Source: Candidatus Bathyarchaeota archaeon
Lineage (GTDB): Archaea > Thermoproteota > Bathyarchaeia > 40CM-2-53-6
Reading direction: 5' to 3'
Length of the DNA stretch: 64,000 nucleotides
NCBI GenBank assembly: GCA_005888745.1
Contig: VBBS01000027.1
Coordinates: 55,045 to 119,044 of the forward strand
A model generated the notes under the pieces. The model did no database searches. It worked only from the letters and a program-made list of their open reading frames with translations, and was not told the DNA's origin. Position 1 is the first letter of the stretch. Every line of letters starts with the position of its first letter. Made by a program: the position numbers and the translations under genes. This document shows, one piece after another, positions 7,555 to 48,389 of this stretch.

Positions 7555-8232
7555 TTAGTCGAAACTTGTGTTTCCGTCGTCTCTCAGCTCGATTTCGATA
7601 TCACCGAACTCTAAAGGCTGGGCGAGGCCCACTCTTCCTTCTACTGCCAAGAATAGCAGCATGATGAACATTCTGACCGCTTCGAGAGGGTCTCCCTTTC
7701 CAAGGAGGGTTAGGAAGGACAATTTTGTTCGCGCGGATCCAGCTTTTGCTACTAGTCTCTGGAGAAACGCTTTGATATTCTCTTCAATCTTGACGAGGAA
7801 ATCGTCGACTTGTTCAAACACCTCGGGCGTCCTGAGAACCATCTGTGCGTTTGCCGGGAGCATTCTCTCCGCCGTCAACACCTCCAGTAATCCTTTGATG
7901 ACTTCCTCAACAGATGTGGTTGTCGACTCGTAGCGTAAGGGAAAGGATAGGGGAGGGGGAACGAAGTCTGTCGGCCTCTCGAGGGGGGGCTTCGGCGGTT
8001 CCTCCATCTTGAGGATTAGTTCTGATTTCATGCGCAGAAGGATTGCTGAAGAGAGAAGGGCTGTCCCAGAAACGGAGAAGTCGATGAACCCTCGACCCCT
8101 CATCTCATGAAGAAGCTCCTCCAGTATGTTTGCGAGGTTTACGTCCCACGGTTTGACGCGGTGAAGATGGATGAGGTCGAAGAGAACGGCATATGGTGCC
8201 TTCAGCCAGTACGCCTCTTCGTGAAGCGTCAA
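7555..8232 (-). CDS. scpA: segregation and condensation protein A (kleisin)
   Basis: ScpA-like N-terminus; overlaps the smc stop by 4 nt. Confidence 0.7.
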   Translation of the reverse strand: MTLHEEAYWLKAPYAVLFDLIHLHRVKPWDVNLANILEELLHEMRGRGFIDFSVSGTALLSSAILLRMKSELILKMEEPPKPPLERPTDFVPPPLSFPLRYESTTTSVEEVIKGLLEVLTAERMLPANAQMVLRTPEVFEQVDDFLVKIEENIKAFLQRLVAKAGSARTKLSFLTLLGKGDPLEAVRMFIMLLFLAVEGRVGLAQPLEFGDIEIELRDDGNTSFD

Positions 8233-11200
8233 TTGTTCTCCTCCCTCGAGGGCAGGGACACGATCTGACTGCTGCCCTTGTCGATGAAGACTCCGAACAC
8301 CCTCTCCGCCCTCGATATTGTCGTATCCTTGAGCGAGATTACTATGAACTGGGACATGATACTCCTCGTCCGAAGGAGGGTCGCTAGGCGTTTTGCGTTT
8401 AACACATCCAAGTGTGCGTCAATCTCGTCCATTACGTAGAATGGCATGGGATGGATTTGTTGGAGTGCTAGAAGGTAGCAGACCGTTGAGACAGACTTCT
8501 CTCCTCCACTCGCGCTCCCAATCGTAAGCTCTGTTTTTCCGGGGAACTGAAGCAGGACGTCGAGTCCGCCTTCAAACGGGTTTTCAGGATTGTCCAGGAC
8601 CATTCTTCCGTTTCCCTCACCAGTCATCTCGCGAAAAATGCTCTGGAATGTCTCGTTGACCTTGTGGTATGCGCTCATGAACGTGTCAAGCTTCTTCCTC
8701 TCGAGCTCGTTCATGAAGTCGAGGATAGCCAGCTTCTCTCTTTCGAGTTCTCCGATCCTAACTGAGAGATGTTTGTATCCTTCTTTCTGTGATTCGTATT
8801 GTTGGGCAGCGAGCTGGTTGATAGCACCTATCTCGTCCCGTTCCTGTTCGAGGACGCGTTTCATATCTTCAGCCTCCTTGATGAGATCCGGGTGAGTCTC
8901 GAGCGGCGTCTCGAATCCAAGGCCTCTAAGTTGTCCTTTGAAGATTGTTAGTTGAGCGTCGACTTCCCTTAGGCCCGCCTTTAGATCGGTCACGCTTGCA
9001 TTGAGTGGATCCATCATTTGCAGAAGTTTCCGAGTTGCTTTTTCGACTTCCACAAACTGTTCTTCGTACTTCTTCCTCTCATCCCCAACGCTGTCCAAAT
9101 TTCGGACCAGCCGCTGCTTTTCCTCGTTGAACTTTTTCATCTCTTTCTCCAATGTTTCGAGTCGTTCGTGCGCTTCTTTGGCTCGGGCCTCTTCGCGATG
9201 AATCTCAGAGTCAAGCGAGCGCAGTTGTATTCGGATCTGGTCGATTCCCGGCCTCAGGGTCTCGAGAGTAGACTGTTGGGAGGAGAGACGTGTTTCTAGC
9301 TCGAGCTTCTCTCGGAGAATGAGTTGGTTCTCGGTGGTGGCTTGGTCTCGCTCCGTTTCGAGTTGAGAGAGCGCTGACCTTCTGGAATCAATCCTCAGCC
9401 TCGTTCTTTCCTCTTCTATGACCGCGAGCCGCCTCTTCATCTCCGCTTGTTTCTCCGCGGTCTCCTTCAACAAGACTTGTTCTTTCGCCATGGAGTTCTG
9501 GAGGCTGTCAATTCGCCGGGTCGTCTGTTGCAAGAATGTTCTTGTTCTCTCGAAACTCTTCTTGGCAAGTTCTACGTCCCTTGCCAAGGCCTCTCGGGTC
9601 TTGCTCGCGGATACTCGGTCTTCCAACAGCTCGTTTAGCTCAATCTCGATACGGTCAACGTCGGACCGTGAGCGTTGCACAACGGTCTCCAGCGATTTCA
9701 CTGTTTTCTCGAGGCTTTCAAGTGCAGTGGATCGGGGAACTAGGTTTGAGATCTCGAGCGGGGCTCTATAGTAGCCGCTCTCGAGGCCTCCTCCTGGCTC
9801 GTAAAGGTCTCCGCTGGTTACGACGCATCTTTGTCCCTTGGATGCTGTCAGGAACGCTGCTCTTTGCGTCGTGGCGAGTACAGTATCGCCGAAGACGAAT
9901 TTGACAGCGGGGGCAACTGACTTGTCGGACCGTATTACCTTCGAAAGCGGACCAATTATTCCGGAGACGTTGCCAGCGTCGGGCTCCAGATCCGAGAGTT
10001 CAAGATCTTCTATCGGAACGATCTTGACGCGTCCAAGCTTAGTACGTTTCAGGCTTTCGACGCACCGGATTGCTACCTCGAGGTTTTTCACAACTAGGGC
10101 TTTCATCCAGCCGGCGCTGGCTGCCTGTATTGCCTTACGGTATTCTTCGGGAAACTTGACGAGATCTTCTAGACGGCCGTAGACGCCTTTCAGAGCGCCT
10201 TCATCAGCCATCTCTTCGATCTTCTCGATAGCTTTGTCTTCTGCTCCCATGCTGTCCGCTAGGATCATTTGTGTGTTGAATTCCACCACGGTGACTCTTG
10301 CCTTCTTTGCGACGTCGAGGGCTTCGTCGATCTCTTTTCTGCGCTGGTCCTTGAGTTCACTGTATTCTTTTGTTTTCTGCTCGATTGATTCGAGCCGTTT
10401 TTCCTCTTCCTTCTGAAGTTTCTCCATTTCGCGGATTCTATTCTTCAGCTCTTCTGAGAGCTGGGCGAACTCTTTCTGGCGGGCTTCGAGGGTTTGCAGA
10501 TGGCTGGCGGTTAGGTCGAGTTTTGTCGAACTGCCCTTGCTTTGAGCGGTTAGGTTTGAAAGTTCCTTTCCCAGGCCGTCGATCTCGTCCTGGACTTCAC
10601 GCAGTTTCTTGGCGTCGAGGTTGAGAGACGATCGGGTGTCGGTAAGCTTTTGGCCGATTTTTTCGACCTTGAATGTGGAATCCTCTAGCTTGTCCTCTAG
10701 GATTTTCTTGTGTGAATGGAGACTTTTGATCGAGCTGGCAAGTGGTTTGACTGAGGTTTCCATCTCTTCCGCCTGTTTTGTGAAGGCTTCGCGCTGTCTT
10801 GCGCGGGTTGTGACCAGGTTCTTCGTTGTTTCCGCGGCGGATTTTGCTTCGACGATGCCCTTGCTGGCTTCTGCGATAAGTCTTTCGAGATCGAAGAGTT
10901 CTTGGTTTCCCTGGGTGACTATTTTCTCTTCGAAGCTTCGTCGGTCTTGTTCGATCTTTGCTCGCTGTTGAGTTAGGTCTTCTCTTTCGTGTCTCACCTG
11001 AGAGAGCTTGACCTGTTCCTGCTCGAGGGTCTGTGACATTTCCTGATGCCGGTTTTCGAGTGCAAGGATCTGGGCGGAGAGGATGCGCGCTTGCTGGCTG
11101 TTTATCTCGGTCTTGAGAAGATTGAACCTGAGAAGGTCGTTTCTTTCTCGTTCCAGCTGTTCTATTCTCTGTCTCACCTCATCAACTCTCGCAGCGGCGA

Positions 11201-11765
11201 CTTTGAGGTTCAGATCGGCCTCTTGTAATTGCACTCTTGCCTCGGCCTTCTTTGTCTCGAAGGTTCCGATTCCGATTAGGCTTTCAAGAATCCTTCTTCG
11301 TTCTTCTGTACTGATCTCCGCGAGGCGAGTGATGGCGTGTTGTGAAATAAGGTTGAAGCCGGTGACTTGGATGTCGGCTGAGCTCATTATGTCCTGGACT
11401 TGTTTTCTGGAGAGGCGTCGTCCGTTAAGGCGGTAGATTCCTTCTCCGCCTTTCGAGAACTCTCTGGATATAGTTACGAGGTCAGAATCTACGGGCAGCT
11501 TTCGGTCACTGTTGTCGAACTGCACTGCCACGTAAGCGGATCGTGCTCCTTCGCCCTGTGACTTGTGGACTAGGTCGGATAGGCTTCTGCCTCGGAGTTC
11601 TCTGGGGCTTAGCTCACCGAGCGCGAACTTGAGACTGTCCAGGATATTGGACTTGCCCGATCCGTTGGGTCCGGTTATGACTGTGAATCCTGTTCCGAGG
11701 TTGATGGAGACCTTCTTGTTGAAGGTCTTGAATCCTCGGATGTCGATTCTCTTGATGAACACCAA
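8229..11765 (-). CDS. smc: chromosome segregation protein SMC
   Basis: 1178 aa; N-terminal Walker A GPNGSGKSN, long coiled coils, hinge, C-terminal signature LSGGEKS and Walker B; TTG start. Confidence 0.9.
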   Translation of the reverse strand: MVFIKRIDIRGFKTFNKKVSINLGTGFTVITGPNGSGKSNILDSLKFALGELSPRELRGRSLSDLVHKSQGEGARSAYVAVQFDNSDRKLPVDSDLVTISREFSKGGEGIYRLNGRRLSRKQVQDIMSSADIQVTGFNLISQHAITRLAEISTEERRRILESLIGIGTFETKKAEARVQLQEADLNLKVAAARVDEVRQRIEQLERERNDLLRFNLLKTEINSQQARILSAQILALENRHQEMSQTLEQEQVKLSQVRHEREDLTQQRAKIEQDRRSFEEKIVTQGNQELFDLERLIAEASKGIVEAKSAAETTKNLVTTRARQREAFTKQAEEMETSVKPLASSIKSLHSHKKILEDKLEDSTFKVEKIGQKLTDTRSSLNLDAKKLREVQDEIDGLGKELSNLTAQSKGSSTKLDLTASHLQTLEARQKEFAQLSEELKNRIREMEKLQKEEEKRLESIEQKTKEYSELKDQRRKEIDEALDVAKKARVTVVEFNTQMILADSMGAEDKAIEKIEEMADEGALKGVYGRLEDLVKFPEEYRKAIQAASAGWMKALVVKNLEVAIRCVESLKRTKLGRVKIVPIEDLELSDLEPDAGNVSGIIGPLSKVIRSDKSVAPAVKFVFGDTVLATTQRAAFLTASKGQRCVVTSGDLYEPGGGLESGYYRAPLEISNLVPRSTALESLEKTVKSLETVVQRSRSDVDRIEIELNELLEDRVSASKTREALARDVELAKKSFERTRTFLQQTTRRIDSLQNSMAKEQVLLKETAEKQAEMKRRLAVIEEERTRLRIDSRRSALSQLETERDQATTENQLILREKLELETRLSSQQSTLETLRPGIDQIRIQLRSLDSEIHREEARAKEAHERLETLEKEMKKFNEEKQRLVRNLDSVGDERKKYEEQFVEVEKATRKLLQMMDPLNASVTDLKAGLREVDAQLTIFKGQLRGLGFETPLETHPDLIKEAEDMKRVLEQERDEIGAINQLAAQQYESQKEGYKHLSVRIGELEREKLAILDFMNELERKKLDTFMSAYHKVNETFQSIFREMTGEGNGRMVLDNPENPFEGGLDVLLQFPGKTELTIGSASGGEKSVSTVCYLLALQQIHPMPFYVMDEIDAHLDVLNAKRLATLLRTRSIMSQFIVISLKDTTISRAERVFGVFIDKGSSQIVSLPSREENN

Positions 11766-11806
11766 GGCTGGGGCCCTGGACTCTCACTCGCAGGTGGGAC
11801 GTGTTC

Positions 11807-12589
11807 TCATCGGCCGTATCTTCTGTAGCGCCTCTGGTAGAGTCTGATGGCCCTTAAGAAATCGATTCTTCGAAACTCGGGCCAATAAACGTCTACGAAG
11901 ACCAGTTCGCTGTATGCGGATTGCCATAGGAGGAAGCCGCTTAGGCGCTCTTCGCCTGACGTCCGTATAACCAGGTCCGGGTTTGGGTTGGGGAGGTGTG
12001 CGGTGTAGAGGTATTTGTGGAATATTCCCTCATCGATGTCTTGGGGTCTCAGGTTTCCTTGGTAGACATCGTCAACGATCTTTTTGGTGGCGTCGACGAT
12101 TTCCGCTCGTCCTGTGTATGCGATTGCGATGTTTAGGAAGTGTCCTGTGTACTCGCTCGTGTCGTCTTCAAGTTTCTTCAGCGCGTCTTGGAGGCTTTCT
12201 GGGAGGAGGTCTGTTCTGCCGAGGGCTTTGACCCTGACCTTTTGTGTGTGGAGACGATTGTCTCTCCCAAGTTTTCGGGCTTCTTCCTCGACGAGTTTGA
12301 GGACGGCGTTTACTTCTTCGGCGGGCCGGTCGAAGTTTTCGGTTGAGAACGTGTAGAGGGTTAGGGTCTTGATTCCGTATTCGAGGCACCAGTCCAGCAC
12401 TTCTTCTCCAACCTTCGCGCCAATAGTGTGTCCGTCGTTGGGCCGGAGAGCTTTTTCCACGGCCCATCTTCTGTTACCGTCTAGTATTATTCCAATATGT
12501 TCAGGTAGCGGTTTTCCCTTGACCTGCTCGGTGAGCCATTTTTCATAGGCGGTGTATACTCCTGCTATTCTGAGTAGGCTGTCTAACAC
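11807..12589 (-). CDS. uppS: cis-prenyltransferase (undecaprenyl/tritrans,polycis-undecaprenyl-diphosphate synthase)
   Basis: HIGIILDGNRRWA motif and UPP synthase fold. Confidence 0.85.
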   Translation of the reverse strand: MLDSLLRIAGVYTAYEKWLTEQVKGKPLPEHIGIILDGNRRWAVEKALRPNDGHTIGAKVGEEVLDWCLEYGIKTLTLYTFSTENFDRPAEEVNAVLKLVEEEARKLGRDNRLHTQKVRVKALGRTDLLPESLQDALKKLEDDTSEYTGHFLNIAIAYTGRAEIVDATKKIVDDVYQGNLRPQDIDEGIFHKYLYTAHLPNPNPDLVIRTSGEERLSGFLLWQSAYSELVFVDVYWPEFRRIDFLRAIRLYQRRYRRYGR

Positions 12590-13389
12590 GTTTGTTCTTT
12601 GACCTCCGGTTTGTTGAGTTGGGCTTGGGCGAGCGCTCTTGCGCAGGAGCAGCCGTCTCTCGTGTCAGGTATCTTGCCTATAGCTTCTATGAGAATCTTG
12701 TTCAGGATCTGGCTGGTCTCTTTTCCCTTCTCTTCCACCTCTCTTGCTGAGAGTGTTCTCTGGAGGCCGGCTGCCATGTTAGAGACGAAGCTGATTGATG
12801 CATAGCATATCTGGAGCTCTCTGGCGAGGAAGGCTTCTGGGGCGCCTGTCATTCCCACGATCGCGCCGCCGAGTGTCTTGAGCATGCGTATCTCCGCTGG
12901 TGTCTCGTATCTTGGGCCTTCGGTGGCGGCCATTACGATGTCGTTTCGAATGGTTTTCTTGCTGTCAGAGCCGGCGCTGGTTATCGCGTTTCTCAGGGTT
13001 GGGCAGTATGGTTCGGATACGTCGACATGTGTGACCGGGGAGTCGTCGTAGAAGGTTCCTTGTCGAGATTTCGTAAAATCGATCAGGTCTGAGGGTACGA
13101 CTATCTCTCCTGGTGTGAGAGTGGTGTCTATTGCACCGACGGCGTTTGTAGCGATTATTCTTTCAACCCCGAGACTTTTGAGTCCCCATATGTTGGCTCG
13201 ATAATTTACCTTGTGGGGTGGAGCGGTGTGTCCTTCGCCGTGTCGTGGTAGATAGACTGCTTCTCGTCCTTTAACTTGTCCGATGGTCAGGGTTGGGGTT
13301 GGACCGTATGGTGTGCCGAGGATCTTTTCTTCGCCTTTGACGAGGGATTTGACTCCTGAGCCACCGATTATTGCGATGGGCGGTTTCAT
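12583..13389 (-). CDS. mtnP: S-methyl-5'-thioadenosine phosphorylase / purine nucleoside phosphorylase
   Basis: MKPPIAIIGGSG N-terminus and PNP-family motifs. Confidence 0.8.
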   Translation of the reverse strand: MKPPIAIIGGSGVKSLVKGEEKILGTPYGPTPTLTIGQVKGREAVYLPRHGEGHTAPPHKVNYRANIWGLKSLGVERIIATNAVGAIDTTLTPGEIVVPSDLIDFTKSRQGTFYDDSPVTHVDVSEPYCPTLRNAITSAGSDSKKTIRNDIVMAATEGPRYETPAEIRMLKTLGGAIVGMTGAPEAFLARELQICYASISFVSNMAAGLQRTLSAREVEEKGKETSQILNKILIEAIGKIPDTRDGCSCARALAQAQLNKPEVKEQTC

Positions 13390-14150
13390 TCCTCTTCCTC
13401 GTAGAGTGCGCTCAGCTCGTGGAGGGAGAGCTTTGCGCCCTGGCTGAGCTTCTTCTTCGCAGCCTCTTTCAAGTTCTGCTTGTGAGTTTCTTCTTTTTGG
13501 CGCTGACTCATTTTCTCAGCTAGATCAATCGATTTTCTGACTACTTGGTATTGCTCGTCTGCGTCCTTGTATTCTCCGCGGAGCTGGTTGAGGGATTTTC
13601 TAACATCTTCCTGTTTTATCTTGAGTGCTTCGAACCGTTCGGATAGTATTACGATCTCCTCGTGATGCTTCTGGCTTTCCTCCGCGAGCTCCTGGACCTT
13701 CGCGTGTAGCTCGTCTGCTTCTTGGTTGGCTTTTGTGACCTCATCTCGTAGTCGGTTGATCTTCTTGGCCGCGTTTACTTGGGTTTCGAGAGCTCGGATC
13801 TTTATCATCAGACGCTTTTCTTCTTCCTTGCCTAGTGGTGCGGTTTGTACTTGCCATTCGAGCTGTTGTAGCTCGTGCTCGGCTGTTACAGACTGGAGGA
13901 GCTTGGGCGCTGTTTTCTGGAGAATCTTCAGTTTTGTGATGTTCTGTTTTGCTTTGTCTCGAAGGTTGTCTCGGGTTTTCTTGAGGGCTCTGACTGTCTC
14001 GTTGAGTTCGTCGCGGGTCTTCCGGCTTGCTTGGAGTTCTGTGCGTGTAGTGTCGAGTTTGCTTCTTACCTCGGATAGTGCTCCTAGGAGTTTGCGTTCG
14101 TCGGTTTTGATCCGCTGCCGCTCGTCGGCGAGCATTTCGAGATTGGTCAT
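13386..14150 (-). CDS. coiled-coil protein (archaeal COG1340-like)
   Basis: 254 aa, almost entirely heptad-repeat, charged. Confidence 0.5.
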   Translation of the reverse strand: MTNLEMLADERQRIKTDERKLLGALSEVRSKLDTTRTELQASRKTRDELNETVRALKKTRDNLRDKAKQNITKLKILQKTAPKLLQSVTAEHELQQLEWQVQTAPLGKEEEKRLMIKIRALETQVNAAKKINRLRDEVTKANQEADELHAKVQELAEESQKHHEEIVILSERFEALKIKQEDVRKSLNQLRGEYKDADEQYQVVRKSIDLAEKMSQRQKEETHKQNLKEAAKKKLSQGAKLSLHELSALYEEEE

Positions 14151-14248
14151 AGCTGGATCCCCGTTTGTAACTGACGGGTCTGATTGTTGGAATATGGGGA
14201 AGCCGCCTTATAGACGTTCAACTCACTCCCTTCCAGAAGGGAGGTCAG

Positions 14249-14938
14249 TTGGGGCTGGAAAGGGTTGGGAGTCGTCTGTCCCTGATCGGGACGGTGCACG
14301 TGGACCCTGCCAGCGCTACGAACGTTCGAGGCACTATTGTAGCGATGAAACCGGAGGTCGTGGCCTTGGAGCTGGATGAGGCCCGGATGATGGCGCTGGA
14401 GAATCCGAAGGCTCAGAGCGGACGCGGAGCTGGAGTGTCATTTCTGACCTTGGCTTTGTTGGAGAGGTTTGCTGGACAGATGACCGGGTCGCCTCCCGGA
14501 ACAGAGATGTTGGAGGCAGCTAGGACGGCGAAGGCTGTCGGGTCCAGAGTGGAATTCATCGATCTGCCTATCACGAGTACGGGCGCCGCGTTGAGGGGGC
14601 TGCCTCGGAAGGAGAAAGCGAAACTGGTGGTTGACGCGCTCGTCAGCCTTGTCGTCTTGCCGTTCAGCAGGATAAACTGGTCGAAGGTGACGGAGGACTT
14701 GGATTCGCAGATCGGGGCTTTCCGGAAAAGATATCCAGTTTTGAGCAAGATATTGATCGATACGCGCGAGGAGCACATGATCAACCGTTTGAAGATGGTG
14801 ATGGACTCGACGACCGGGCAGGTCTTGGCCGTTGTAGGTTTTGGACACCGGGCTTCGCTGGCGCGGGCGTTGGCTGGGTATATGGAAGGACCGGGGTTCA
14901 GTACTAGTATTTCCTGGAACGTGTCGACCGGCAGCTGA
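14249..14938 (+). CDS. TraB/PrgY-family protein
   Basis: GTVHVDPAS...VVALELDEAR motif characteristic of TraB family. Confidence 0.55.
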   Translation: MGLERVGSRLSLIGTVHVDPASATNVRGTIVAMKPEVVALELDEARMMALENPKAQSGRGAGVSFLTLALLERFAGQMTGSPPGTEMLEAARTAKAVGSRVEFIDLPITSTGAALRGLPRKEKAKLVVDALVSLVVLPFSRINWSKVTEDLDSQIGAFRKRYPVLSKILIDTREEHMINRLKMVMDSTTGQVLAVVGFGHRASLARALAGYMEGPGFSTSISWNVSTGS

Positions 14939-15116
14939 TGGCTGGATTCAGCCATGGAGGAAGGAGGGAGTGGCATGGGTAAGTGAACGTGGGTTCTAAG
15001 CGTTTTCACGAAGAGCGGGGCGCGGGAAAACAGACCACTCCGGGGTCACATAATAGTTAACGGAAAAAATAGTTACAAGAAAAGTTAGGATACTCAGAAC
15101 TCTCGTACCGTGCCCT

Positions 15117-15917
15117 TCACGGATCTTTCTGACGCGAGCGGGCTGACTTCGCGAGTTCGCGTAGGAGGTATGCGATGGCGTTGTCCAGCCTTGCGTGAGA
15201 GTTGGGGTCTACGCTGTAGACATGAAGCTGGATTAGGGTCCGGATTCCACCCTCGCGGCCGCGGGGATGGGACTTGAAGTATAGTCCTGGAAAGGCCTTC
15301 CGCGTGCGGTCTAGGGCCGGCGCGAGTGCTGACTCAATAATTCCAACCAGGCCAATGGACACTTCCTTGGGAGCTTCTGTCTTCGAGGATCTCAGCATCG
15401 GAGTAACGGACCCTTGGAAGATGGCTTTCATCTCTGAGGGAACCCCTGGAAGAGAAACAAGCCTCGTCTTGCCAACTTTGATCGTGACTCCCGGAGCAGT
15501 TCCAACGGGATTGGGAAGAGGCTTAGCGCCCTCAGGCAAGGTGGCCATCTTTCTACGAAATCGGGTTAGACCTGTAGAAGCTTCCAGCATACTGTACCGG
15601 GCCTTGACCATCGCGAAAGCTTCCGAATCCAGCACGAGCCGCTTGTTCAGAGCGAGGGCGACTCCTTTGAGAGTCATGTCATCATGGGTCGGACCAAGAC
15701 CGCCGAGAGTGATCAGAACGTCAGGTCTTCTTCGAAGAGCGCCTCCAACTCCATCCTTTAACGCCGCAAGCGAGTCGCGAAGGACAGTGATCCTCTGAAG
15801 GGTCCAACCGAAACTTGTGAGACGTCTTGCGATCCAGTGAGAATTGGTATCAAGTGTGTGTCCGATCAGTAGTTCATCGCCGACAGAGATTATCTCTGCT
15901 GTCGGAGACTTCCTCAC
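15117..15917 (-). CDS. CinA-like molybdopterin-binding (MoCF_BD) domain protein
   Basis: N-terminus AEIISVGDELLIGHTLDTNSHWIARRL matches the CinA N-terminal domain. Confidence 0.7.
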   Translation of the reverse strand: MRKSPTAEIISVGDELLIGHTLDTNSHWIARRLTSFGWTLQRITVLRDSLAALKDGVGGALRRRPDVLITLGGLGPTHDDMTLKGVALALNKRLVLDSEAFAMVKARYSMLEASTGLTRFRRKMATLPEGAKPLPNPVGTAPGVTIKVGKTRLVSLPGVPSEMKAIFQGSVTPMLRSSKTEAPKEVSIGLVGIIESALAPALDRTRKAFPGLYFKSHPRGREGGIRTLIQLHVYSVDPNSHARLDNAIAYLLRELAKSARSRQKDP

Positions 15918-15943
15918 TCAGCAAGACCCCGAAAAAGCCCTGA

Positions 15944-16570
15944 CTAGTGTCTCTCCAACGAGACGACAGCTGCCAGTGCGCCTGAAAGAGCTCGGTTCGC
16001 GTCTTTCCCAAACCCAATGATCACGAGGTCGTTCTCAGAGGGATGGAAGAGTTCTCGAATCCGAGCATCTTCACGTGGCGACAGTTCGGCAACTTTCTTG
16101 TTATCGGGCGGTATCGAGAGCTTCCCGTTAACGACCGCTATAGTTAGGGTCCCTTCCGCGCCGACCTTGATCGCTTCGTCCCTTTGTAACACCCCTGTGA
16201 TTCCGGGCTTGTACCTCTTGGACAAGTGGACTCCTACCGACACTTTGCCGGGGACCAGTTCCATCTCATCTAGTGTCCTGATCTTGCGCACGGCTATCTG
16301 CTTAAGATACCGTTGCAATGTTTCCCGTCCTTGCCTAGAAAGCTTGGCACCCGTTCCCTCGCCAACTTCAACCAAGCCCTGTTCCGCGAGCCTTTCCAAC
16401 AAGCCCCGGGTAACGCCATCATTGATTTGAAGAGCTTGAGCCAAGGCACGGCGTCCAACCGGGCCCTCAAGGTCAATGAGGACTAGGGCGCTCAGAAGCT
16501 GGACTGGAGTAAGCTGGGGAAGCGGACCCCTGGCTCCGCGACGCCACTTCTCAAGCATTTCCTCAAGCAT
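15944..16570 (-). CDS. winged-helix DNA-binding domain protein with uncharacterised C-terminal domain (possibly DUF120/riboflavin-kinase-like)
   Basis: N-terminal wHTH-like LSALVLIDLEGPVGRRALAQAL; C-terminal EGTLTI-containing beta-rich domain; assignment tentative. Confidence 0.4.
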   Translation of the reverse strand: MLEEMLEKWRRGARGPLPQLTPVQLLSALVLIDLEGPVGRRALAQALQINDGVTRGLLERLAEQGLVEVGEGTGAKLSRQGRETLQRYLKQIAVRKIRTLDEMELVPGKVSVGVHLSKRYKPGITGVLQRDEAIKVGAEGTLTIAVVNGKLSIPPDNKKVAELSPREDARIRELFHPSENDLVIIGFGKDANRALSGALAAVVSLERH

Positions 16571-24298: not shown

Positions 24299-24706
24299 CT
24301 AGACTCTTCGACCGCGTCGACCGCCGGGTCTTCGGGTCCCATCGTGAGGGACTGGTGTCACGTCTTCTATTCGGCCGATTCTGAAACCGTGACGGGCAAG
24401 CATTCTGATGGCTGCTTGCGCCCCCGGACCAGGAGTCCTGGCACCGTGTCCACCCGGAGCTCGTACTCGAATGTGAAGGGAGGTAATTCCCTTGTCCTTT
24501 GCGGTCTTGGCGGCGGCCGCAGCGGCCTGCATCGCGGCGTATGGTGTCCCCTGGAGTCTGTCGGCTTTGACGTGTTGCCCGCCGGCGCTTCGAGATATTG
24601 TCTCGGCGCCTGTGAGGTCTGTTATGTGGACCATGGTGTTGTTGAAGGATGAGTAGATGTGGGCTATTCCCCATCTGTCCGCCGGTGCTTTCGTCTTCTC
24701 CGCCAT
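24299..24706 (-). CDS. rps11: 30S ribosomal protein S11
   Basis: [24 protein letters not shown]11 signature. Confidence 0.9.
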
Positions 24707-24779
24707 GCAGAATTACCTGATAGATTGCGGCTTGACCCTCACGCGAATTTAAACTCTCCTTGGAGGATATCGTCCCAAG

Positions 24780-27119
24780 TTGAAACTAGACTTCTGGCTC
24801 CTAGACCTCAACCACGATGCCCATGAGGGCAAGTCTGCGATCTGGCTGTGGGGAGTCACACGTGACAACAAACGAGTCCTAGTTATCGACGCCAACTTTC
24901 AGACGTCCTTCTATCTCCTGCCTAAGAAAGGGCAGGACATCGACCAATTGAAAGAGAGGATAGAGAGAGAAAAACCACATCCCTCAGTTGAAAGAGCCGA
25001 TATCGAACAGAAGAAACGCCTCGGGGAAGATAGACAAGTTCTCAAGGTGTCTTGCAAAGATCCTGACAATTTGGAGAAGTGTGCGAGAGACTGCGTAAAG
25101 CAGCTCGGTGTGGAGGCGAGCTTTGAGGACAAGCTTCGTTATTCGATAAAATACCAGATCGAGTTCGAGATCAGACCCTGCCAATGGTACAAAGTCGAGG
25201 GAACAGAATCCTCTATTGATCCTCGAAAGTATCATGTTGACAGGGTCTTTGAGACCAGTGGGCATCCAACTTCCATCCCAAGGGAAAATGCTCCCAAACT
25301 TCGACTGCTCTCCTTTTCTATCCTATCTGTCAGTCCCACAGGTTCTCCGAGCCCAATCCGCGACCCCGTATGTCTTGTCGCATGGAAAAAAAAGGATGGC
25401 CAGGCAAATACCATCCAGTCAGAAAAAACCTCTGACAATGAACTAATCGAAGAATTCTCGCAGGCTCACCAGAAATTTGACCCCGATGTTGTCTTCTCGT
25501 TTGGCGGCAACACATTCGACTGGCCCTACCTGATCAAGCGAGCCGATAGGACCAAGGCAAAGCTTTCCGTTGGAAGGGACGATGGTCCAGCCCGCCAGAG
25601 CCTCTATGGCCACTTCTCCCTCACCGGACGAGCAAACGTGGATCTGCAGGACTTCTCAGGAGACCTCTATGATGTAAAGATCAAGACCGTGGAGAATGTC
25701 GCTAGGTTTCTCGGAGTCGAAGCATCTACTCCAACAATCGACGAGACAGAATACTACGATCACTGGATCGGCAAGGATCGCCCGGCATTAGTAGAACAGA
25801 TGAAAGCGCGCGCGATTTCAATATTCAATGTCGGAGACGACGCACTTGATTACACCCTACAACTCTCGAATCTCTCAGCGCTCCCACCCGACCAAGTTCT
25901 TGCAGCTGCGGTCGGGTTCAGGGTCGATAGTTACTTGTTGATGGAGGCGCGCAAGCTCGGCGAGCTGATCCCTGCCAGATCAGAACTGAACATCATCCCC
26001 TACAAGGGTGCAATTGTCCTAGAACCCAGTGTAGGACTTCACGACAATGTTGCAGTGCTCGACTTCTCCGCGATGTATCCTAGTCTCATGGTGAAGTACA
26101 ACATTTCCCCTGACACTCTCGTCGATGAGGGAGGCGATGATGCCCTTGAGGTTCCCGAGGTCGGGCATCATTTCCGGAAGAACCCTCCAGGATTCTACAA
26201 GATCGTTCTAAGTCAGCTCATCGCAAGTCGACAGGCGGCGAAGAAAGAGGCCGCTAAGACACCGCGCGGAACTCCCGAACACAAGATCCTGAAAGCACGT
26301 GAAAAGGCGACCAAGGTCATTACCAATGCCACCTACGGGTATGCGGGTTGGGCCGGGTCCAGATGGTACTCTCGTGAGGTCGCAGAATCAGCCGCCGCAC
26401 TCGGAAGAGACACAATCAACAAATCCATTGATATCGCCAAGAATCTCGGACTCCATGTTCTCTACGGAGACACAGACAGCCTCTTCGTCGAATACGAGGA
26501 AAAACTCGTCAACCAATTCATCAAAGAGATCGACAAGAATCTAGGTCTTGAAATCAACCTGGGACAATTGTACAAGCGAATCCTGTTCACCGAGGCCAAG
26601 AAGAAGTACGCTGGACTACTGGAAGATGGCGAGCTCGATATTGTCGGAATGGAAGCAATCAGAGGAGACTGGTCTAACCTCGCGAGAAGTATCCAGAACG
26701 AAGTTCTCAAACTTGTCCTTCAAGGTGGCAATCCAACTGAAGCAAAGTCATACGTGCAGAGCCTAGTCAAGGACCTGGAATCCTTCAAGGTTCCGAAGTC
26801 TTCGCTGGTGATATGGAAGACCCTTACCAAACGTCCTGATGAGTACGAGGTAAATGCTCCACATGTGGAGGTTGCTCGGAAGATGGCAAAGGAAGGCTGG
26901 CCCGTGACTGTGGGAGACAAGGTTGGTTTCATAGTCACAAAGAAACCCGGCAAGCTCTACCAAAAGGCAGAGCCGCACTTCAAGGTCTCCCTTGGGCAGG
27001 TGGATTACGACTATTATGTTCACAATCAGATTGTCCCGGCTGCGGCTAGAGTTCTAGAGGTCTTTGGGATACATGAGGAAGATCTTCTTGAACCGAGTCG
27101 CGGTCAAGTCAATTTGTAA
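24780..27119 (+). CDS. polB: family-B DNA polymerase
   Basis: Pol motifs DFSAMYPSLM (A), KVITNATYGY (B) and YGDTDS (C) are intact; exonuclease motif I reads LLSFSILSV instead of FDIE. Confidence 0.9.
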   Translation: MKLDFWLLDLNHDAHEGKSAIWLWGVTRDNKRVLVIDANFQTSFYLLPKKGQDIDQLKERIEREKPHPSVERADIEQKKRLGEDRQVLKVSCKDPDNLEKCARDCVKQLGVEASFEDKLRYSIKYQIEFEIRPCQWYKVEGTESSIDPRKYHVDRVFETSGHPTSIPRENAPKLRLLSFSILSVSPTGSPSPIRDPVCLVAWKKKDGQANTIQSEKTSDNELIEEFSQAHQKFDPDVVFSFGGNTFDWPYLIKRADRTKAKLSVGRDDGPARQSLYGHFSLTGRANVDLQDFSGDLYDVKIKTVENVARFLGVEASTPTIDETEYYDHWIGKDRPALVEQMKARAISIFNVGDDALDYTLQLSNLSALPPDQVLAAAVGFRVDSYLLMEARKLGELIPARSELNIIPYKGAIVLEPSVGLHDNVAVLDFSAMYPSLMVKYNISPDTLVDEGGDDALEVPEVGHHFRKNPPGFYKIVLSQLIASRQAAKKEAAKTPRGTPEHKILKAREKATKVITNATYGYAGWAGSRWYSREVAESAAALGRDTINKSIDIAKNLGLHVLYGDTDSLFVEYEEKLVNQFIKEIDKNLGLEINLGQLYKRILFTEAKKKYAGLLEDGELDIVGMEAIRGDWSNLARSIQNEVLKLVLQGGNPTEAKSYVQSLVKDLESFKVPKSSLVIWKTLTKRPDEYEVNAPHVEVARKMAKEGWPVTVGDKVGFIVTKKPGKLYQKAEPHFKVSLGQVDYDYYVHNQIVPAAARVLEVFGIHEEDLLEPSRGQVNL

Positions 27120-28386
27120 TCGTAGGGCCCGGACTGAACGAAGAGAGATCGCTCAGAGTCATCACGTTCACGTTGGGTGGCTTCTTGGCGCCGTCGGATA
27201 TCCTGTCGCCAATGACGAATCGGATGTTCTTTCCGGCGGCAATGTCCAACAATCTCTGAGTGACAACTCCATCGAAGAGGATCAAATGCGCGTTCTCTAC
27301 GCTTGGAATCTTCTCCGCAAGCTCGCTGACAGGCATTCGGGATAGCTCCTTTCCTGCTTCGTCGAATATCACTGCCTCCAGAGTTCCGCGCAGGTCTTTT
27401 GCTGCGTCGAACACCGTTGGCGAGAGACTGGGTCTTGGGATGGGCGGTGCTTCTACGCGAGGTTCAGATGGGCCGTATCCTCTTTCGTAGGGTCGCTCGT
27501 ATCGTTCCTGTCTCTCAGGTCTTTCCTGGCGGGCGAACTGAACTCTTTCTGGTCTCTCGATAGGTCGAGCTAGATTGATTGGGACCTTTTCTCTGAGGGC
27601 TTTCATTAGCTCCTTAGGAGTGAGCTCCTCTACCTCTTTGCCGAAGGGTGCACGTGCAACGTAGTCTATGTCTGCGACCTGTTGTAGTTCTTTGAGGATC
27701 AGGTCTCCTGCCCTGTCACCGTCCAGGAAGGCTGTGACTTCCTTGTCCTTGGTGAGTTTGATGATGGTATCAGGTACCTTGGTGCCGTTGAGCGCGATGA
27801 CGTTCTTTATCCCCACCTTCATGAGGAGAATGACGTCGGCTCTGCCTTCAACGACAATTAGTGAGCCGCTCTCGACCTCCGGACCCGCAGGGAGCTTCTC
27901 GGGACCGTACTCGATAAGATCGACACCCCTTAGGGAGGAAGCGACTTCTTTGACGACCTCTTCAGTGCTGGGAGATGATTCGACTACCCATTTGCGGAGA
28001 ATGTCCTTCGCCTTGGTTAGGATGGCGTTTCTTTTTTCTTCGCGGACATCCTCTACCTTCTCCAGTGTAATCTTGGCTTCGCAGGGGCCGATTCTGTCGA
28101 CGCTCTCGATCGCGGCGGCAATAATGGCTGTAGAGACCTTGTCTAGGCTTGAGGGTATTACGATTGATCCTGTTGTCTTGTCGCGTTTGGAGTCGAGGTT
28201 GATCTCGATTCGTCCTATTCTTCCTGATTTTTGTAGTTCTCTAAGGTCTAGATCGGGTCCGAAGAGTCCTTCTGTTTGTCCGAAGACCGCACCCACAACA
28301 TCAGGTTTCTCGACGACGCCTTGAACGTCGAAGTGTGCTTTTACTATGTATTTTGTAGTCGTAGCGTACTGAGACTGTTCAACCAT
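27109..28386 (-). CDS. dnaG: archaeal DnaG-type primase (Toprim)
   Basis: N-terminal KYIVKAHFDVQGVVEKPDVVGAVFGQTEGL and a Toprim core typical of archaeal DnaG. Confidence 0.85.
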   Translation of the reverse strand: MVEQSQYATTTKYIVKAHFDVQGVVEKPDVVGAVFGQTEGLFGPDLDLRELQKSGRIGRIEINLDSKRDKTTGSIVIPSSLDKVSTAIIAAAIESVDRIGPCEAKITLEKVEDVREEKRNAILTKAKDILRKWVVESSPSTEEVVKEVASSLRGVDLIEYGPEKLPAGPEVESGSLIVVEGRADVILLMKVGIKNVIALNGTKVPDTIIKLTKDKEVTAFLDGDRAGDLILKELQQVADIDYVARAPFGKEVEELTPKELMKALREKVPINLARPIERPERVQFARQERPERQERYERPYERGYGPSEPRVEAPPIPRPSLSPTVFDAAKDLRGTLEAVIFDEAGKELSRMPVSELAEKIPSVENAHLILFDGVVTQRLLDIAAGKNIRFVIGDRISDGAKKPPNVNVMTLSDLSSFSPGPTITN

Positions 28387-43704: not shown

Positions 43705-44562
43705 ATGATGGGCCGGCAGATAGCCCAAGTATTCGCCCAAAATGGCCACGAGGTCGAGGCCACGGATGAGGATCAGCAAGCACTGAAGGCGGGGCTCAAC
43801 GAAATAGCAGACGGGCCCTACGGATTGCACGCGGCTGTTTCAAAAGGAAAACTGGCTGCAGAGCAAGCTCACAGGACTCTAGCAGCCATCAAGACAAGAC
43901 CCGAGCTAGCGGATGTTTGCAAGAACTCGACTCTTGTGATCGAGGCAGCCTTCGAGGAGCTGCAACTCAAACAGAATCTGTTTCACAGAATTGAATCTGC
44001 TGCGCCACCAACTGCGATCATAGCATCAAACACTTCAACCTTGAGCCTGGACAAGATCACCCAAAGAATCTCAAGGAAGGACAGAACGATTGGAATGCAC
44101 TTCTTTAATCCAGCCCAGCTCACAAAACTCGTCGAGATCGTCCGAGGAACGTCGACATCACCTGAAACACTAGAGAAAGCGTCCCAAATCGTCCGGGAGA
44201 TCGGTAAGACCCCTATCCTCGCCCAAGATGAGCCTGGTTTCATCGCCAACCGTCTCGGACTCACCCTCTACATGGAGGCTTCAAGACTGCTAGAGGATCG
44301 TGTCGCAAGTCTCTCTGACATCGACACGTGCATGAGACTCGGATACAACCATCCAATGGGACCCTTCGAACTAGCCGACTTCGTCGGACTTGACACCAGA
44401 CTTCGGAATCTAGAATCACTCTACAAGTCAACGAATGAAAGTAAATGGATACCACCTCAGATTCTAAGAGAGATGGTCCAACAAGGATACCTCGGCGACC
44501 CTGCTAGAAAGAAGACGAGCAAGGGCGGATACTACGAGTATCTCCGGATAAAGCGAGGATAA
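43705..44562 (+). CDS. hbd: 3-hydroxyacyl-CoA (3-hydroxybutyryl-CoA) dehydrogenase; likely starts ~43678
   Basis: NAD-binding plus C-terminal dimerisation domain; the beta1 strand of the Rossmann fold, KVAIVGFG, lies upstream of the first ATG, in frame after the thioesterase TAG. Confidence 0.85.
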   Translation: MMGRQIAQVFAQNGHEVEATDEDQQALKAGLNEIADGPYGLHAAVSKGKLAAEQAHRTLAAIKTRPELADVCKNSTLVIEAAFEELQLKQNLFHRIESAAPPTAIIASNTSTLSLDKITQRISRKDRTIGMHFFNPAQLTKLVEIVRGTSTSPETLEKASQIVREIGKTPILAQDEPGFIANRLGLTLYMEASRLLEDRVASLSDIDTCMRLGYNHPMGPFELADFVGLDTRLRNLESLYKSTNESKWIPPQILREMVQQGYLGDPARKKTSKGGYYEYLRIKRG

Positions 44563-45019
44563 GAAAATCCCAACCCTTTATACAGAACATAAGCCGTGTC
44601 AACTCCACTGGTTGTTATTTGGTGTGTTAACTTCGTTCGTCTCCAGCCGTTACCTTCGAAGTATGACTCTTCACATGTTAGGCGGTCGTCGCATGAACCT
44701 GTCACGTTGGGATGAGGGGGATGACTCCGATCAGGTGACGGGTCAGAAATGGGATAGCCGGTTGGCTGGCCACCGTAAAATCCTTGCTTGGCAATCGGCC
44801 AAGTTACCACGCTATGGGCGTGAGGGGGCGGTTGAGGTTCGACCGTTCCCTGCCAAAAAGAGACTACATGTCTCTGAGGCGCAAGGGCTCGCAGGTGAAG
44901 CAGTGAAGAGGAACCCGCCGACGACGGTAATCCTCCGAGCAGATGAGAGCAAGTCTAGTCCCCCAGCAACGGAAGACTCGACAGAACCCAGAACACAACC
45001 CACAAACCATCGATGATGA

Positions 45020-45793
45020 TTGCTGTACACACACATTCTAGTTGAGACTGAGCCGCCTATCGGAATCATCCGACTGAACCGTCCGAAAGCTCTCAACGCC
45101 CTCAACTTCGAACTTATCCAAGAAACAGTGGAGGCACTCGAAGGCTTCGACAAAGACGACAGGATCAAAGCGACGATCTTGACAGGGGGAGACGACGCCT
45201 TCTCTGCTGGAGCAGACATCAAGGAACTAGCGGAAGCGACTCCTGTCACCTTGATCGAGGAGAACAAGTTCGCCCTCTGGGATCGCTTGAAGAAGATCGC
45301 AAAGCCGATCATAGGAGCGGTCAGCGGCTACATCTACGGAGGAGGATGCGAACTGGCAATGAATTGCGATATCATCATTGCATCCGAGACCGCACGATTC
45401 GCACAGCCTGAAATCAACATCGGAATAATGCCCGGAGCTGGCGGGACACAGCGTCTCACAAGAACCATCGGAAAGTATAGGACAATGGAGATGGTTCTAA
45501 CCGGACAACCCATGACCGCGCGAGAGATGGAGAAACACGGTCTCGTCAACAGAATCGTCCCCGTCGAGGCCTACTTCGATGAGGCACGCAAACTCGCCAT
45601 GCAAATCGCCCAGAAAGCCCCCATAGCCACACGGCTAGCGAAAGAGGCGGTGCTGAAAGCTCTCGACACACCGCTCGAGGAAGGGCTACAATTCGAGAGG
45701 AAGAATTTCTACCTCCTCTTCTCAACAGAGGACATGAAAGAGGGAATGAAAGCCTTCACGGAAAAACGGCCCCCCAGATTCAAAGGACGATAG
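45020..45793 (+). CDS. enoyl-CoA hydratase (crotonase family)
   Basis: Crotonase fold with catalytic Glu pair (GGGCELAMNCD...E). Confidence 0.85.
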   Translation: MLYTHILVETEPPIGIIRLNRPKALNALNFELIQETVEALEGFDKDDRIKATILTGGDDAFSAGADIKELAEATPVTLIEENKFALWDRLKKIAKPIIGAVSGYIYGGGCELAMNCDIIIASETARFAQPEINIGIMPGAGGTQRLTRTIGKYRTMEMVLTGQPMTAREMEKHGLVNRIVPVEAYFDEARKLAMQIAQKAPIATRLAKEAVLKALDTPLEEGLQFERKNFYLLFSTEDMKEGMKAFTEKRPPRFKGR

Positions 45794-45796
45794 TTC

Positions 45797-46591
45797 TTGG
45801 CACCTGAAACACTCATCGTCGAAGAACACGACCACATCACAAAGATCACACTGAACAGGCCGAGCGCCCTAAATGCGATAAACGACAAGATGGGCGAAGA
45901 ACTACTCGCGACTCTCAAAGAGACAGAGAAGAGCGACACTACCAGATGTCTTGTCATAACAGGGGCAGGAAGAGCTTTCTCAGCAGGAGAAGACATATCA
46001 GCTCTGAAAGACCGCTCTGGGACAGGAGACCATCCCTCACTCGGGGATCATCTCCGGAAGAAGTATCATCCAATCATAACCCGGATCCGAAACATCGAGA
46101 AACCAGTAATCGCCCGTCTGAACGGCATAGCAGCCGGAAGCGGGGCAAGCTTGGCCCTCGCCTGCGACATCCGAGTAGCCTCAGAGGAGGCGGGCCTCAA
46201 ACAGGCCTTCATCGGGGTAGGCTTGATACCGGATTCTGGAAGCAGCTACTTCCTAACACGAATGATCGGTCCCGGAAGGGCCCTCGAACTCATCATGACA
46301 GGAAAAACAATACCAGCGAAAGAAGCTGAACAACTTGGCCTCATCAACAAAGTCGTCCCCGCCGCCGAGCTTGACAAGCATACAGACGAGCTTGCCCATC
46401 AGCTCGCAACCGGCCCGACCAAAGCACTAGGACTCTCCAAGCGAATCGTGAACAAAGTCATAAGCCTCGAACTTCCAGAAGCCCTGGAGTATGAAGCCTA
46501 CAACCAGGACATCGCTGGACGAACCAGCGACCATCTAGAAGCCGTCAAAGCCTTTCTAGAAAAACGACAGCCGAAGTTCTTAGGGAAATGA
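45797..46591 (+). CDS. enoyl-CoA hydratase/isomerase (second crotonase paralogue)
   Basis: Crotonase-fold motifs; 4 nt after the previous gene. Confidence 0.8.
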   Translation: MAPETLIVEEHDHITKITLNRPSALNAINDKMGEELLATLKETEKSDTTRCLVITGAGRAFSAGEDISALKDRSGTGDHPSLGDHLRKKYHPIITRIRNIEKPVIARLNGIAAGSGASLALACDIRVASEEAGLKQAFIGVGLIPDSGSSYFLTRMIGPGRALELIMTGKTIPAKEAEQLGLINKVVPAAELDKHTDELAHQLATGPTKALGLSKRIVNKVISLELPEALEYEAYNQDIAGRTSDHLEAVKAFLEKRQPKFLGK

Positions 46592-46658
46592 GACACGGTG
46601 TGTTTTCCAGGTTTCACGTTTAAGTAACAAGCTCCTCAATCGCGAGAGTTGAATAACC

Positions 46659-47660: not shown

Positions 47661-47667
47661 GAAGTGG

Positions 47668-47985
47668 TTGAAGATCACGAAGATCATAGTCCTGTTCGGA
47701 CAACCGAAAGACCCCGAACTATTCGATGAGCAATACTGGAAAGACCATGTTCCAATAGCGAAGGCGATGCCAGGTTTGAAGAAATACACAGTTCACAAGA
47801 TCGTTGGGGCACCACGAGGAGAACCGGCATACTACCAGGTTGTCGAACTGGAATTCGAGAATATGGACAGCCTGAAGAAAGCATTGGAAAGCCCGGCCGG
47901 ACGCGAATCAGGCCGGCACGGCGTAAAGATTGCTACTGGTGGCATAACTTTCCTTTACGCGGAATCAAGAGAAGCGATGCCGTAG
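47668..47985 (+). CDS. EthD/Dabb-like dimeric alpha+beta barrel protein
   Basis: 105 aa, EthD-like pattern (KYTVHKIVG...YYQVVELEFENMDS). Confidence 0.5.
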   Translation: MKITKIIVLFGQPKDPELFDEQYWKDHVPIAKAMPGLKKYTVHKIVGAPRGEPAYYQVVELEFENMDSLKKALESPAGRESGRHGVKIATGGITFLYAESREAMP

Positions 47986-48389
47986 AACAACAACAGTCTA
48001 GCCCGGTTCCATCTGACATATTCCTCGGAAAACGTTCTTCTAATCAGACCCGTCAGTTCTAGGACAGGAGCGGGGAAGTCTTAGGCCGCATCGGAATCGT
48101 TGGAGTTGGACATTCAAAGTTCGGAAAAAGGAGCGACGCCTCCCTCCGAGAGCTAGCATTCGAAGCGTACAGTTCCGCCCTAGATGACGCCGACATCGAC
48201 TCTTCAAAAATAGACGGTTCAATAGTTTGCTCCGCCACTCACTACGACAAGCAACGATCGCCTGCAGGTGTTGTTGCGGAATATCTCGGACTCAATCCCC
48301 AACCAACATTCAACGTTGAGGCAGCCTGCGCCTCCAGCGCTGTTGGCCTTCGGACCGCGTGGGCGCTTGTCTCATCAAAACTTCATGAT

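Follow-up and report, generated by a model that had tools for sequence, protein, structure and literature searches.

The 64,000-nucleotide stretch of contig VBBS01000027.1 analysed here (Candidatus Bathyarchaeota archaeon; referred to below as the window) encodes a family B DNA polymerase (PolB) with an intact polymerase active site and an exonuclease site from which most of the catalytic residues have been lost. The gene is located at positions 24780-27119 on the plus strand and codes for a PolB3-type protein of 779 amino acids (TTG start, stop codon at 27117-27119), as determined from the list of open reading frames, Pfam matches and the match to the polymerase structure 5MDN. The enzyme is predicted to polymerise DNA yet to be unable to edit it. 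Chromosomally encoded and derived from PolB3, it would lack proofreading and probably serves as an accessory polymerase within a PolD-based replication system, which is the reading that we consider most likely.

The window encodes a derivative of PolB3

The protein contains the Pfam domains PF00136 (E 2e-59) and PF03104 (E 4e-15), the latter being the N-terminal domain with the 3'-5' exonuclease fold, which is colinear with 5MDN. The closest solved structure in HMMER comparisons is this PolB from Pyrobaculum calidifontis (5MDN; E 4e-179, colinear over amino acids 4-770, about 42% identity); Thermococcales PolB proteins matched with values around 1e-89, and for S. solfataricus PolB1 (1S5J; 2e-40) the polymerase domain alone was aligned. 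Structures of Pyrobaculum and Thermococcales PolB have been assigned to the B3 group (Kazlauskas et al., 2020, supplement). In neighbour-joining trees the window PolB adjoins PolB3-like sequences of Sulfolobaceae and Korarchaeota. Since structures of the B3 group match best and the hallmarks of PolB2 are missing, the protein is classed as a derivative of PolB3 and not as a member of B1 or B2.

The same protein is present in the NCBI database as "DNA polymerase II [Candidatus Bathyarchaeota archaeon]" on a contig of 133,960 bp (100% identity), and an independent ENA assembly (CRIT18-1 scaffold_26) is 99.9% identical across 21 kb spanning the PolB gene. A sequencing or assembly artefact is excluded because of this independent assembly and because the state of the exonuclease site described below is common to 113 full-length homologues.

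Catalytic residues of the exonuclease are lost

Exonuclease columns were read from a MAFFT alignment of 113 full-length sequences, in which the closest relatives are represented at 50% identity alongside family members. The six columns read D-E-N-D-Y-D in 71 of the 113 aligned sequences, and the window PolB carries S180, L182, G242, D247, Q340 and R344 at these positions. With SLGDQR replacing DENDYD, the protein is therefore a derived, exonuclease-inactivated offshoot of PolB3 and not a typical member of the group.

Exonuclease motif I (Exo I) has degenerated to LLSFSILSV (25305-25331, plus strand), with S180 in place of the catalytic Asp and L182 in place of the catalytic Glu. A reading made from the DNA sequence only had reported the loss of both residues at this site, and positions 25302-25331 indeed translate into RLLSFSILSV within the frame of the 779-codon gene. 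The loss is confirmed by the HMMER alignment, in which LRVLAFDIEV of 5MDN pairs without gaps with LRLLSFSILSV of the window, and by the two columns, which are D and E in 71 of the 113 sequences. A check for an intact Exo I elsewhere in the protein found none. As an alternative DxE motif D219-N-E221 (SDNELIEEF), the one similar string noticed in the vicinity, was considered and rejected; it aligns to TEREMIKRF of KOD polymerase, a segment without exonuclease motifs in this alignment.

Exo II is partly degenerate (FGGNTFDWPYL, 25500-25532, plus strand; aligned to YNSNGFDWPYL of 5MDN). Its catalytic Asp, D247 in NTFDWPYL, is retained as the sequence-only reading had it, and an additional loss that this reading did not contain is the replacement of the conserved Asn by G242. 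For Exo III the earlier assignment was misplaced: FNVGD (amino acids 349-353, 25824-25838, plus strand), which had been taken for Exo III with Phe instead of Tyr, aligns to YELGK of KOD, just C-terminal to the KOD Exo III block YSMED. The true Exo III position is QMKAR (amino acids 340-344, 25797-25811, plus strand), corresponding to YVLDD in 5MDN and YSMED in KOD, with Q340 instead of Tyr and R344 instead of Asp. The Exo III helix itself is present and aligned to 5MDN without a gap. The damage to this motif is more severe than first claimed, because both Tyr and Asp are replaced.

Altogether, three of the four metal-binding carboxylates (the equivalents of D141, E143 and D315 in Pfu) and the Exo III Tyr are lost; the Exo II Asp is what remains. 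With only a single carboxylate out of four remaining and the Tyr lost, the site is predicted to be no longer able to bind two catalytic metals, and the proofreading deficiency proposed earlier gains in strength.

The polymerase site is intact and the C-terminal motif is cut short

The polymerase motifs were found intact, as had been read before. Motif A (DFSAMYPS, 26061-26084, plus strand) contains the catalytic D428, motif B reads KVITNATYGY (26313-26342, plus strand), and motif C (YGDTDS, 26463-26480, plus strand) contains D564 and D566. A survey of the 120 closest homologue clusters (60-100% identity) yielded 113 full-length proteins, and the three Asp residues are kept in all of these.

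Comparison of the tails showed that the protein ends with GQVNL (27102-27116, plus strand), which resembles the Q-x-x-L of a PCNA-interacting protein (PIP) box and is followed by the stop codon, with no aromatic pair. The stop lies in an 11-nt overlap with a convergent DnaG-type gene (27109-28386). Among the approximately 113 full-length homologues, Q(V/A)SL forms the end of nearly all, in some cases extended by a few non-aromatic residues, and an aromatic pair was found in none. The family of the window protein (the window family) has GQVSL or GQVNL followed by the stop, and its sister family adds non-aromatic residues. Tails resembling QxxLxxFF are kept in canonical relatives and in other exonuclease-dead Bathyarchaeia lineages (for example QVSLMDFLGR and GLESFF). 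Thus, the aromatic pair of the canonical PCNA-binding motif is missing from the sequences of the window family, which suggests short-patch, weakly PCNA-dependent synthesis.

The uracil-sensing pocket, formed by Tyr7, Pro36, Tyr37 and Val93 in Pfu/KOD numbering, may also be changed. In the alignment to KOD the corresponding residues of the window PolB are H12, T42, S43 and L98, with a family consensus of Tyr at position 43, and read-ahead sensing of uracil may be altered. Amino acids 12 and 42-43 are encoded at 24793-24815 and 24900-24911 of the window.

The degenerate exonuclease domain is under purifying selection

The Exo I DxE motif is present in none of the 113 full-length homologues, and the most frequent pattern in their exonuclease columns is SLGDQQ. 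The sequence-only reading had described the degenerate exonuclease as a feature of one gene; the loss is real, and it is not limited to this gene, being common to the whole lineage.

To quantify selection, the ratio of nonsynonymous to synonymous substitution rates (dN/dS) was calculated against an 85% identical orthologue (L001, GCA_035935655.1). Values of 0.08, 0.16 and 0.07 were obtained for the N-terminal, exonuclease and polymerase domains, respectively, and 0.095 for the whole gene; all of them are rough because dS is near 1. In deeper pairs the ratio of exonuclease to polymerase identity is 0.67 for exonuclease-dead sequences and 0.72 for canonical PolB3. Constraint on the exonuclease domain thus appears slightly relaxed, and because of its dN/dS of 0.16 the domain is probably retained as a scaffold, that is, as a structural module. 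The first exonuclease column varies across exonuclease-dead lineages (S, K, D, W, G, H and others). Residues at the exonuclease columns vary freely, and these sites therefore look unconstrained. From these sequence comparisons, the loss is best described as a stable state and not as ongoing degeneration.

Exonuclease-dead relatives are found among Bathyarchaeia

Relatives were sought among 1.84 billion representatives, and the best matches were examined. About 17 of the nearest full-length 50%-identity representatives (35-54% identity) are exonuclease-degenerate; their residues differ and their polymerase motifs are intact. Two intein-bearing relatives are likewise degenerate. Named exonuclease-dead relatives belong to Bathyarchaeia/Bathyarchaeota or are labelled "Nitrososphaerota archaeon"; a few carry the labels "bacterium HR11" and "Aciduliprofundum sp.", which are taken to be the result of mis-binning. 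The canonical neighbours are the PolB3-like sequences of Sulfolobaceae and Korarchaeota.

In neighbour-joining trees the exonuclease-dead sequences cluster, with a bootstrap of 63% when all domains are used. When the polymerase domain alone is used, an exonuclease-dead Culexarchaeum sequence joins this group with a bootstrap of 32%. The simplest reading would be a single ancient loss of the exonuclease residues, common to the nearest relatives; several independent losses are a possible alternative.

Two further groups of degenerate sequences were observed. PolB3-like proteins of Culexarchaeia (P0124 and P0272, Candidatus Culexarchaeum nevadense) have the exonuclease columns WTGIYN, and this degeneration is either a second loss or the same one, as the trees disagree; a Culexarchaeia genome (L045, Culexmicrobium cathedralense) carries DP2, the polymerase subunit of PolD. 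A small PolB3-like cluster (P0179, P0180, P0184 and P0187; EVDVVG, AEGLDE, AEDE-R and AEGIDE) is placed among canonical sequences in the neighbour-joining tree, adjoining P0148.

Exonuclease-inactivated family B polymerases as such are already known, namely Pol alpha, Pol zeta and PolB2. We found no description of an exonuclease-inactivated PolB3 branch across the whole Bathyarchaeia-labelled lineage in the searchable open-access literature, and Kazlauskas et al. (2020), in their section on B3, mention no member of the group with an inactivated exonuclease.

PolD in Bathyarchaeia and in the sister family

Two annotated metagenome-assembled genomes (MAGs) of Bathyarchaeia (L127 and L128) carry the order NucS/EndoMS-DP1 ... 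nadE-Elf1-PcrB-DP2, in which all phosphoesterase motifs of DP1 are intact. The full nadE-Elf1-PcrB-DP2 order is present in both, and nadE is also located upstream of DP2 in L048, L067 and L101. The NucS/EndoMS-type gene (PF01949) directly adjoins DP1 (L127 1791-2396, L128 1-412), an adjacency that may link mismatch repair with the replicase.

Among the 120 rows of a degenerate motif scan, genomes of eight Bathyarchaeia species carried DP2 with an intact catalytic motif; the pattern used was RRNCDGDED, and the motif of the soil lineage, RRDCDGDED, lies outside its reach. Scanning of metagenomes with a Bathyarchaeia DP2 alignment yielded 80 DP2 loci. Six of these, from soil, have tetranucleotide profiles that correlate with that of the window at r = 0.87-0.95, compared with 0.37-0.54 for other Bathyarchaeia DP2 loci; 16-kb chunks of the window compared with its remainder gave r values of 0.93-0.96. 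The soil DP2 motif is KRRDCDGDED (L199-L204, P0526), whereas P. abyssi and the remaining Bathyarchaeia loci have KRRNCDGDED; named relatives of the soil loci are Bathyarchaeia. The soil DP2 lineage is about 45% identical to other Bathyarchaeia DP2 and about 43% identical to Pyrococcus DP2.

In the MAG GCA_030157145.1, DP2 (P0526, on JASDBE010000053.1) occurs together with an exonuclease-dead PolB (P0119, on JASDBE010000004.1). The latter is 61% identical to the window PolB, shows the S11-PolB-DnaG-GAPDH synteny and has the exonuclease columns SLGYLK. The DP2 tree places P0526 as the sister of a large soil clade (L199, L201, L202, P0534 and others), which mirrors the PolB tree, where the family of P0119 is sister to the window family.

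Several soil-type loci carry a gene for a Y-family polymerase (PF00817, IMS) next to DP2 (L209 8231-9325, L210 1233-2120, L213 8765-9847, L214 7676-8758). In L213 a 5'-3' exonuclease gene (PF02739/PF01367) also lies within approximately 2 kb of DP2.

Other candidate links between PolB and DP2 were pursued and dropped. The equal length (8,544 bp) of one PolB contig and one DP2 contig proved coincidental, and no PolB and DP2 proteins could be paired through neighbouring NCBI accessions. P0550 (on a 1.05-Mb contig) and P0078 belong to separate MAGs, P0534 and P0081 to separate JGI samples. A DP2 gene with canonical motif was also seen on L003 (IMGVR_UViG_3300001598_000765, 6,320 bp), which is filed as viral and is probably a misfiled cellular fragment.

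Possible role of the polymerase

With an intact polymerase active site and a dead exonuclease site, the enzyme would most likely fill gaps, act in repair or extend primers or mismatched termini as an accessory polymerase. Purifying selection would maintain its exonuclease domain for a structural function, as is the case in eukaryotic Pol alpha and Pol zeta, and the cut PIP motif of the window family would fit short-patch synthesis that depends weakly on PCNA. Bulk, proofread replication would be carried out by PolD, consisting of the DP2 polymerase and the Mre11-like exonuclease DP1, which is presumed to be present in the source genome. In Methanococcus maripaludis PolD rather than PolB is essential. 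The same holds for Thermococcus kodakarensis (Kazlauskas et al., 2020), and PolD is encoded by all archaea except Crenarchaeota (Makarova, 2014). The corollary of the sequence-only reading, by which the enzyme would not be the main replicase or proofreading would come from another protein, gains indirect support from the sister-family MAG with both an exonuclease-dead PolB and DP2 and from the soil DP2 loci with a tetranucleotide signature like that of the window.

Several observations weigh against this reading or limit it. Neither DP1 nor DP2 nor any other DNA polymerase is encoded in the 64-kb window; DP1 and DP2 were searched for by tblastn with P. abyssi queries that are essentially identical to PDB 5IHE and 6HMS. 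The NAD synthase gene nadE, which in other Bathyarchaeia heads the nadE-Elf1-PcrB-DP2 cluster, was identified in the window by its Pfam match (50646-51509, minus strand), and this cluster is broken there, with no Elf1, PcrB or DP2 adjoining. In the soil-lineage loci no DP1 gene was observed up to 10 kb from DP2. The link between PolB and DP2 in one MAG depends on binning and concerns the sister family rather than the window family, and the single exonuclease-dead clade is backed by moderate support (the neighbour-joining bootstrap of 63%). In addition, an AlphaFold2 model calculated from a 31-sequence family alignment had a mean predicted local distance difference test (pLDDT) score of 61, a predicted template modelling (pTM) score of 0.49 and values below 50 in the exonuclease core (amino acids 235-303); it was too poor to inspect the exonuclease pocket and was not used.

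A narrower function can be envisaged as well, in which the enzyme is a dedicated extender of translesion products or mismatches, a counterpart of Pol zeta or PolB2/Dpo2 that takes over the termini which a Y-family polymerase leaves behind. In that case the lack of proofreading would be an advantage, as editing would reverse the bypass. PolB2/Dpo2 is an extender of this kind, a B-family enzyme without exonuclease activity in translesion synthesis (PMC8764526; Kazlauskas et al., 2020), a Y-family polymerase adjoins DP2 in the soil lineage, and the cut PIP tail suggests non-processive synthesis. However, the polymerase site is fully canonical (YGDTDS), unlike that of PolB2, and the gene lies in a housekeeping neighbourhood with no damage-response neighbours. 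We regard such specialisation as rather unlikely, though worth keeping in mind; it overlaps with the accessory function favoured here and does not exclude it. It is quite improbable, on the other hand, that this PolB is the main or sole replicase, with fidelity provided by a separate exonuclease, by post-replicative repair or not at all, replication being error-prone. The missing PolD genes and nadE-DP2 linkage in the window would fit this, as would the precedent of PolB-only replication in Nitrosocaldales and Thermoprotei. Against it stand the DP2 gene in the sister-family MAG GCA_030157145.1, the soil DP2 loci that share the compositional signature of the window, the truncated PIP box, which speaks against a processive replicase, and the PolD-less relatives (Sulfolobaceae), which retain DENDYD. 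We likewise give little credence to the idea that an abundant soil family of Bathyarchaeia replicates without any polymerase-intrinsic proofreading. This idea would draw on the dead exonuclease and missing PIP aromatic residues of what would be the only B-family polymerase of the family, and on the broken nadE-DP2 cluster. Fidelity would be wholly dependent on nucleases acting in trans or on mismatch repair if the genome truly lacked PolD or a functional DP1.

The remaining explanations question the loss itself. An exonuclease that is still active through shifted or non-canonical residues, or that has been overlooked through misaligned motifs, might draw on D247, which is kept, and on D195, D236, D288 and D295, acidic residues of the exonuclease domain that are invariant in the family. 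D236 and D288 are not replacement residues, because canonical enzymes in the alignment carry them too. Moreover, no gaps interrupt the alignment with 5MDN (about 42% identity) over Exo I and Exo III, canonical relatives hardly vary at the six columns, and the residues in these columns vary freely among exonuclease-dead lineages, so that hidden activity seems very doubtful. Loss of catalytic residues would also be expected in a decaying gene. The chance that a pseudogene or an assembly error is being looked at is negligible, given the intact reading frame of 779 codons, the 99.9% identical independent assembly, the 113 full-length homologues, the whole-gene dN/dS of 0.095 and the conserved synteny.

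Comparison with known polymerases

PolB3 is generally regarded as the proofreading archaeal PolB. The window PolB and archaeal PolB3 (5MDN, Pfu, KOD, Tgo) share the order of N-terminal, exonuclease, palm/fingers and thumb domains and the motifs A, B and C; both are single-subunit enzymes encoded by chromosomal genes and are colinear over their full length. In contrast to PolB3, the window PolB has lost the Asp and Glu of Exo I, the Asn of Exo II and the Tyr and Asp of Exo III, and its family lacks the C-terminal aromatic residues of the PIP box. Engineered exonuclease-minus KOD and Pfu (D141A/E143A) are disabled at the two Exo I positions as well; the KOD chain of PDB 4K8Z reads LAFAIAT compared with LAFDIET in the wild type and differs at the two Exo I positions alone. 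These are laboratory mutants with intact Exo II and Exo III, whereas the loss in the window PolB is natural, broader and ancient.

PolB2/Dpo2 is likewise an archaeal B-family enzyme without a functional exonuclease site, and it coexists with other replicative polymerases. Its motif C contains just one Asp, a D(K/R) motif is present and the Exo III region is missing (Kazlauskas et al., 2020); its gene shares an operon with arCOG07300 and an inactivated paralogue of RadA (Makarova, 2014). The window PolB instead has YGDTDS, an Exo III helix and S11 and DnaG as neighbours. The eukaryotic enzymes Pol alpha and Pol zeta show the same exonuclease-domain scaffold with catalytic residues lost and work beside proofreading replicases. 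They belong to a different clade, are multisubunit enzymes and have a Cys-rich C-terminal domain that binds a B-subunit, none of which applies to the window PolB, which ends approximately 10 residues past the thumb and has no Cys cluster; the resemblance to Pol alpha and Pol zeta would therefore be functional only. The presumed partner replicase, PolD (DP1/DP2) of Bathyarchaeia, has an unrelated fold and would be encoded outside the window.

It is fairly probable that Bathyarchaeia-labelled relatives early turned PolB3 into a non-editing polymerase that, like Pol alpha or Pol zeta, operates beside PolD. A large and environmentally abundant group carrying this label would then have kept the canonical PolB3 core with the editing site switched off. 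Archaea would offer an independent example of labour being divided between PolD, which proofreads, and a B-family enzyme that does not edit, bearing on the evolution of the eukaryotic polymerase set and on the mutation rates predicted for a globally important uncultured group. For enzyme mining, the family may offer a natural mesophilic exonuclease-minus PolB. Annotations such as "DNA polymerase II" or "DNA polymerase I" imply proofreading and should be read with caution, as this activity is probably absent from such proteins.

Genomic neighbourhood of the polymerase gene

The gene for ribosomal protein S11 (24299-24706, minus strand) is the divergent upstream neighbour of the PolB gene. On the other side, a gene for a DnaG-type Toprim protein (27109-28386, minus strand; Pfam Toprim) is convergent with PolB, the 3' ends overlapping by 11 nt. 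The 73-nt intergenic region between S11 and PolB contains a TTTAAA box at 24746-24751, about 30 nt 5' of the TTG start, and GGAGGA 12-17 nt upstream of this start codon, consistent with an archaeal TATA box and a short leader. The order S11-PolB-DnaG-GAPDH is kept in L001, L124, L211 and L215, the longer order S11-PolB-DnaG-GAPDH-PheRS in five related contigs, and the DnaG-type gene adjoins PolB in all related loci. In the window, as in four of the related contigs, the neighbours of PolB are S11, SHMT, DnaG and GAPDH. Other genes of the window encode SMC, MetE-like proteins, PheRS alpha and beta, beta-oxidation enzymes, NadE, POR and an aquaporin.

The G+C content is flat across the window (0.51-0.54). 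This, the housekeeping flanks and the synteny kept across families mark the region as ordinary chromosomal DNA and give no support for a mobile-element origin of PolB. The only PADLOC match was to a homing-endonuclease model, presumably built on an intein-bearing polymerase, and was disregarded. Rfam and tRNA scans of the window gave no matches, and a scan for bacterial promoters and terminators was uninformative for an archaeon.

In the window, nadE is followed by an open reading frame for a DUF35-like zinc ribbon, a free-standing LAGLIDADG_3 open reading frame (49282-50208) and a thiolase fragment. In L001 and L124 the DUF1512 gene, too, has LAGLIDADG_3 open reading frames on its flanks. Strong AT skew was observed at 8001-16000 (-0.29, -0.24) and 44001-48000 (+0.24). 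These stretches match runs of genes on the same strand, namely SMC (8229-11765) with adjoining genes on the minus strand and the beta-oxidation genes on the plus strand, and the skew looks like a purine bias of the coding strand rather than a replication signal.

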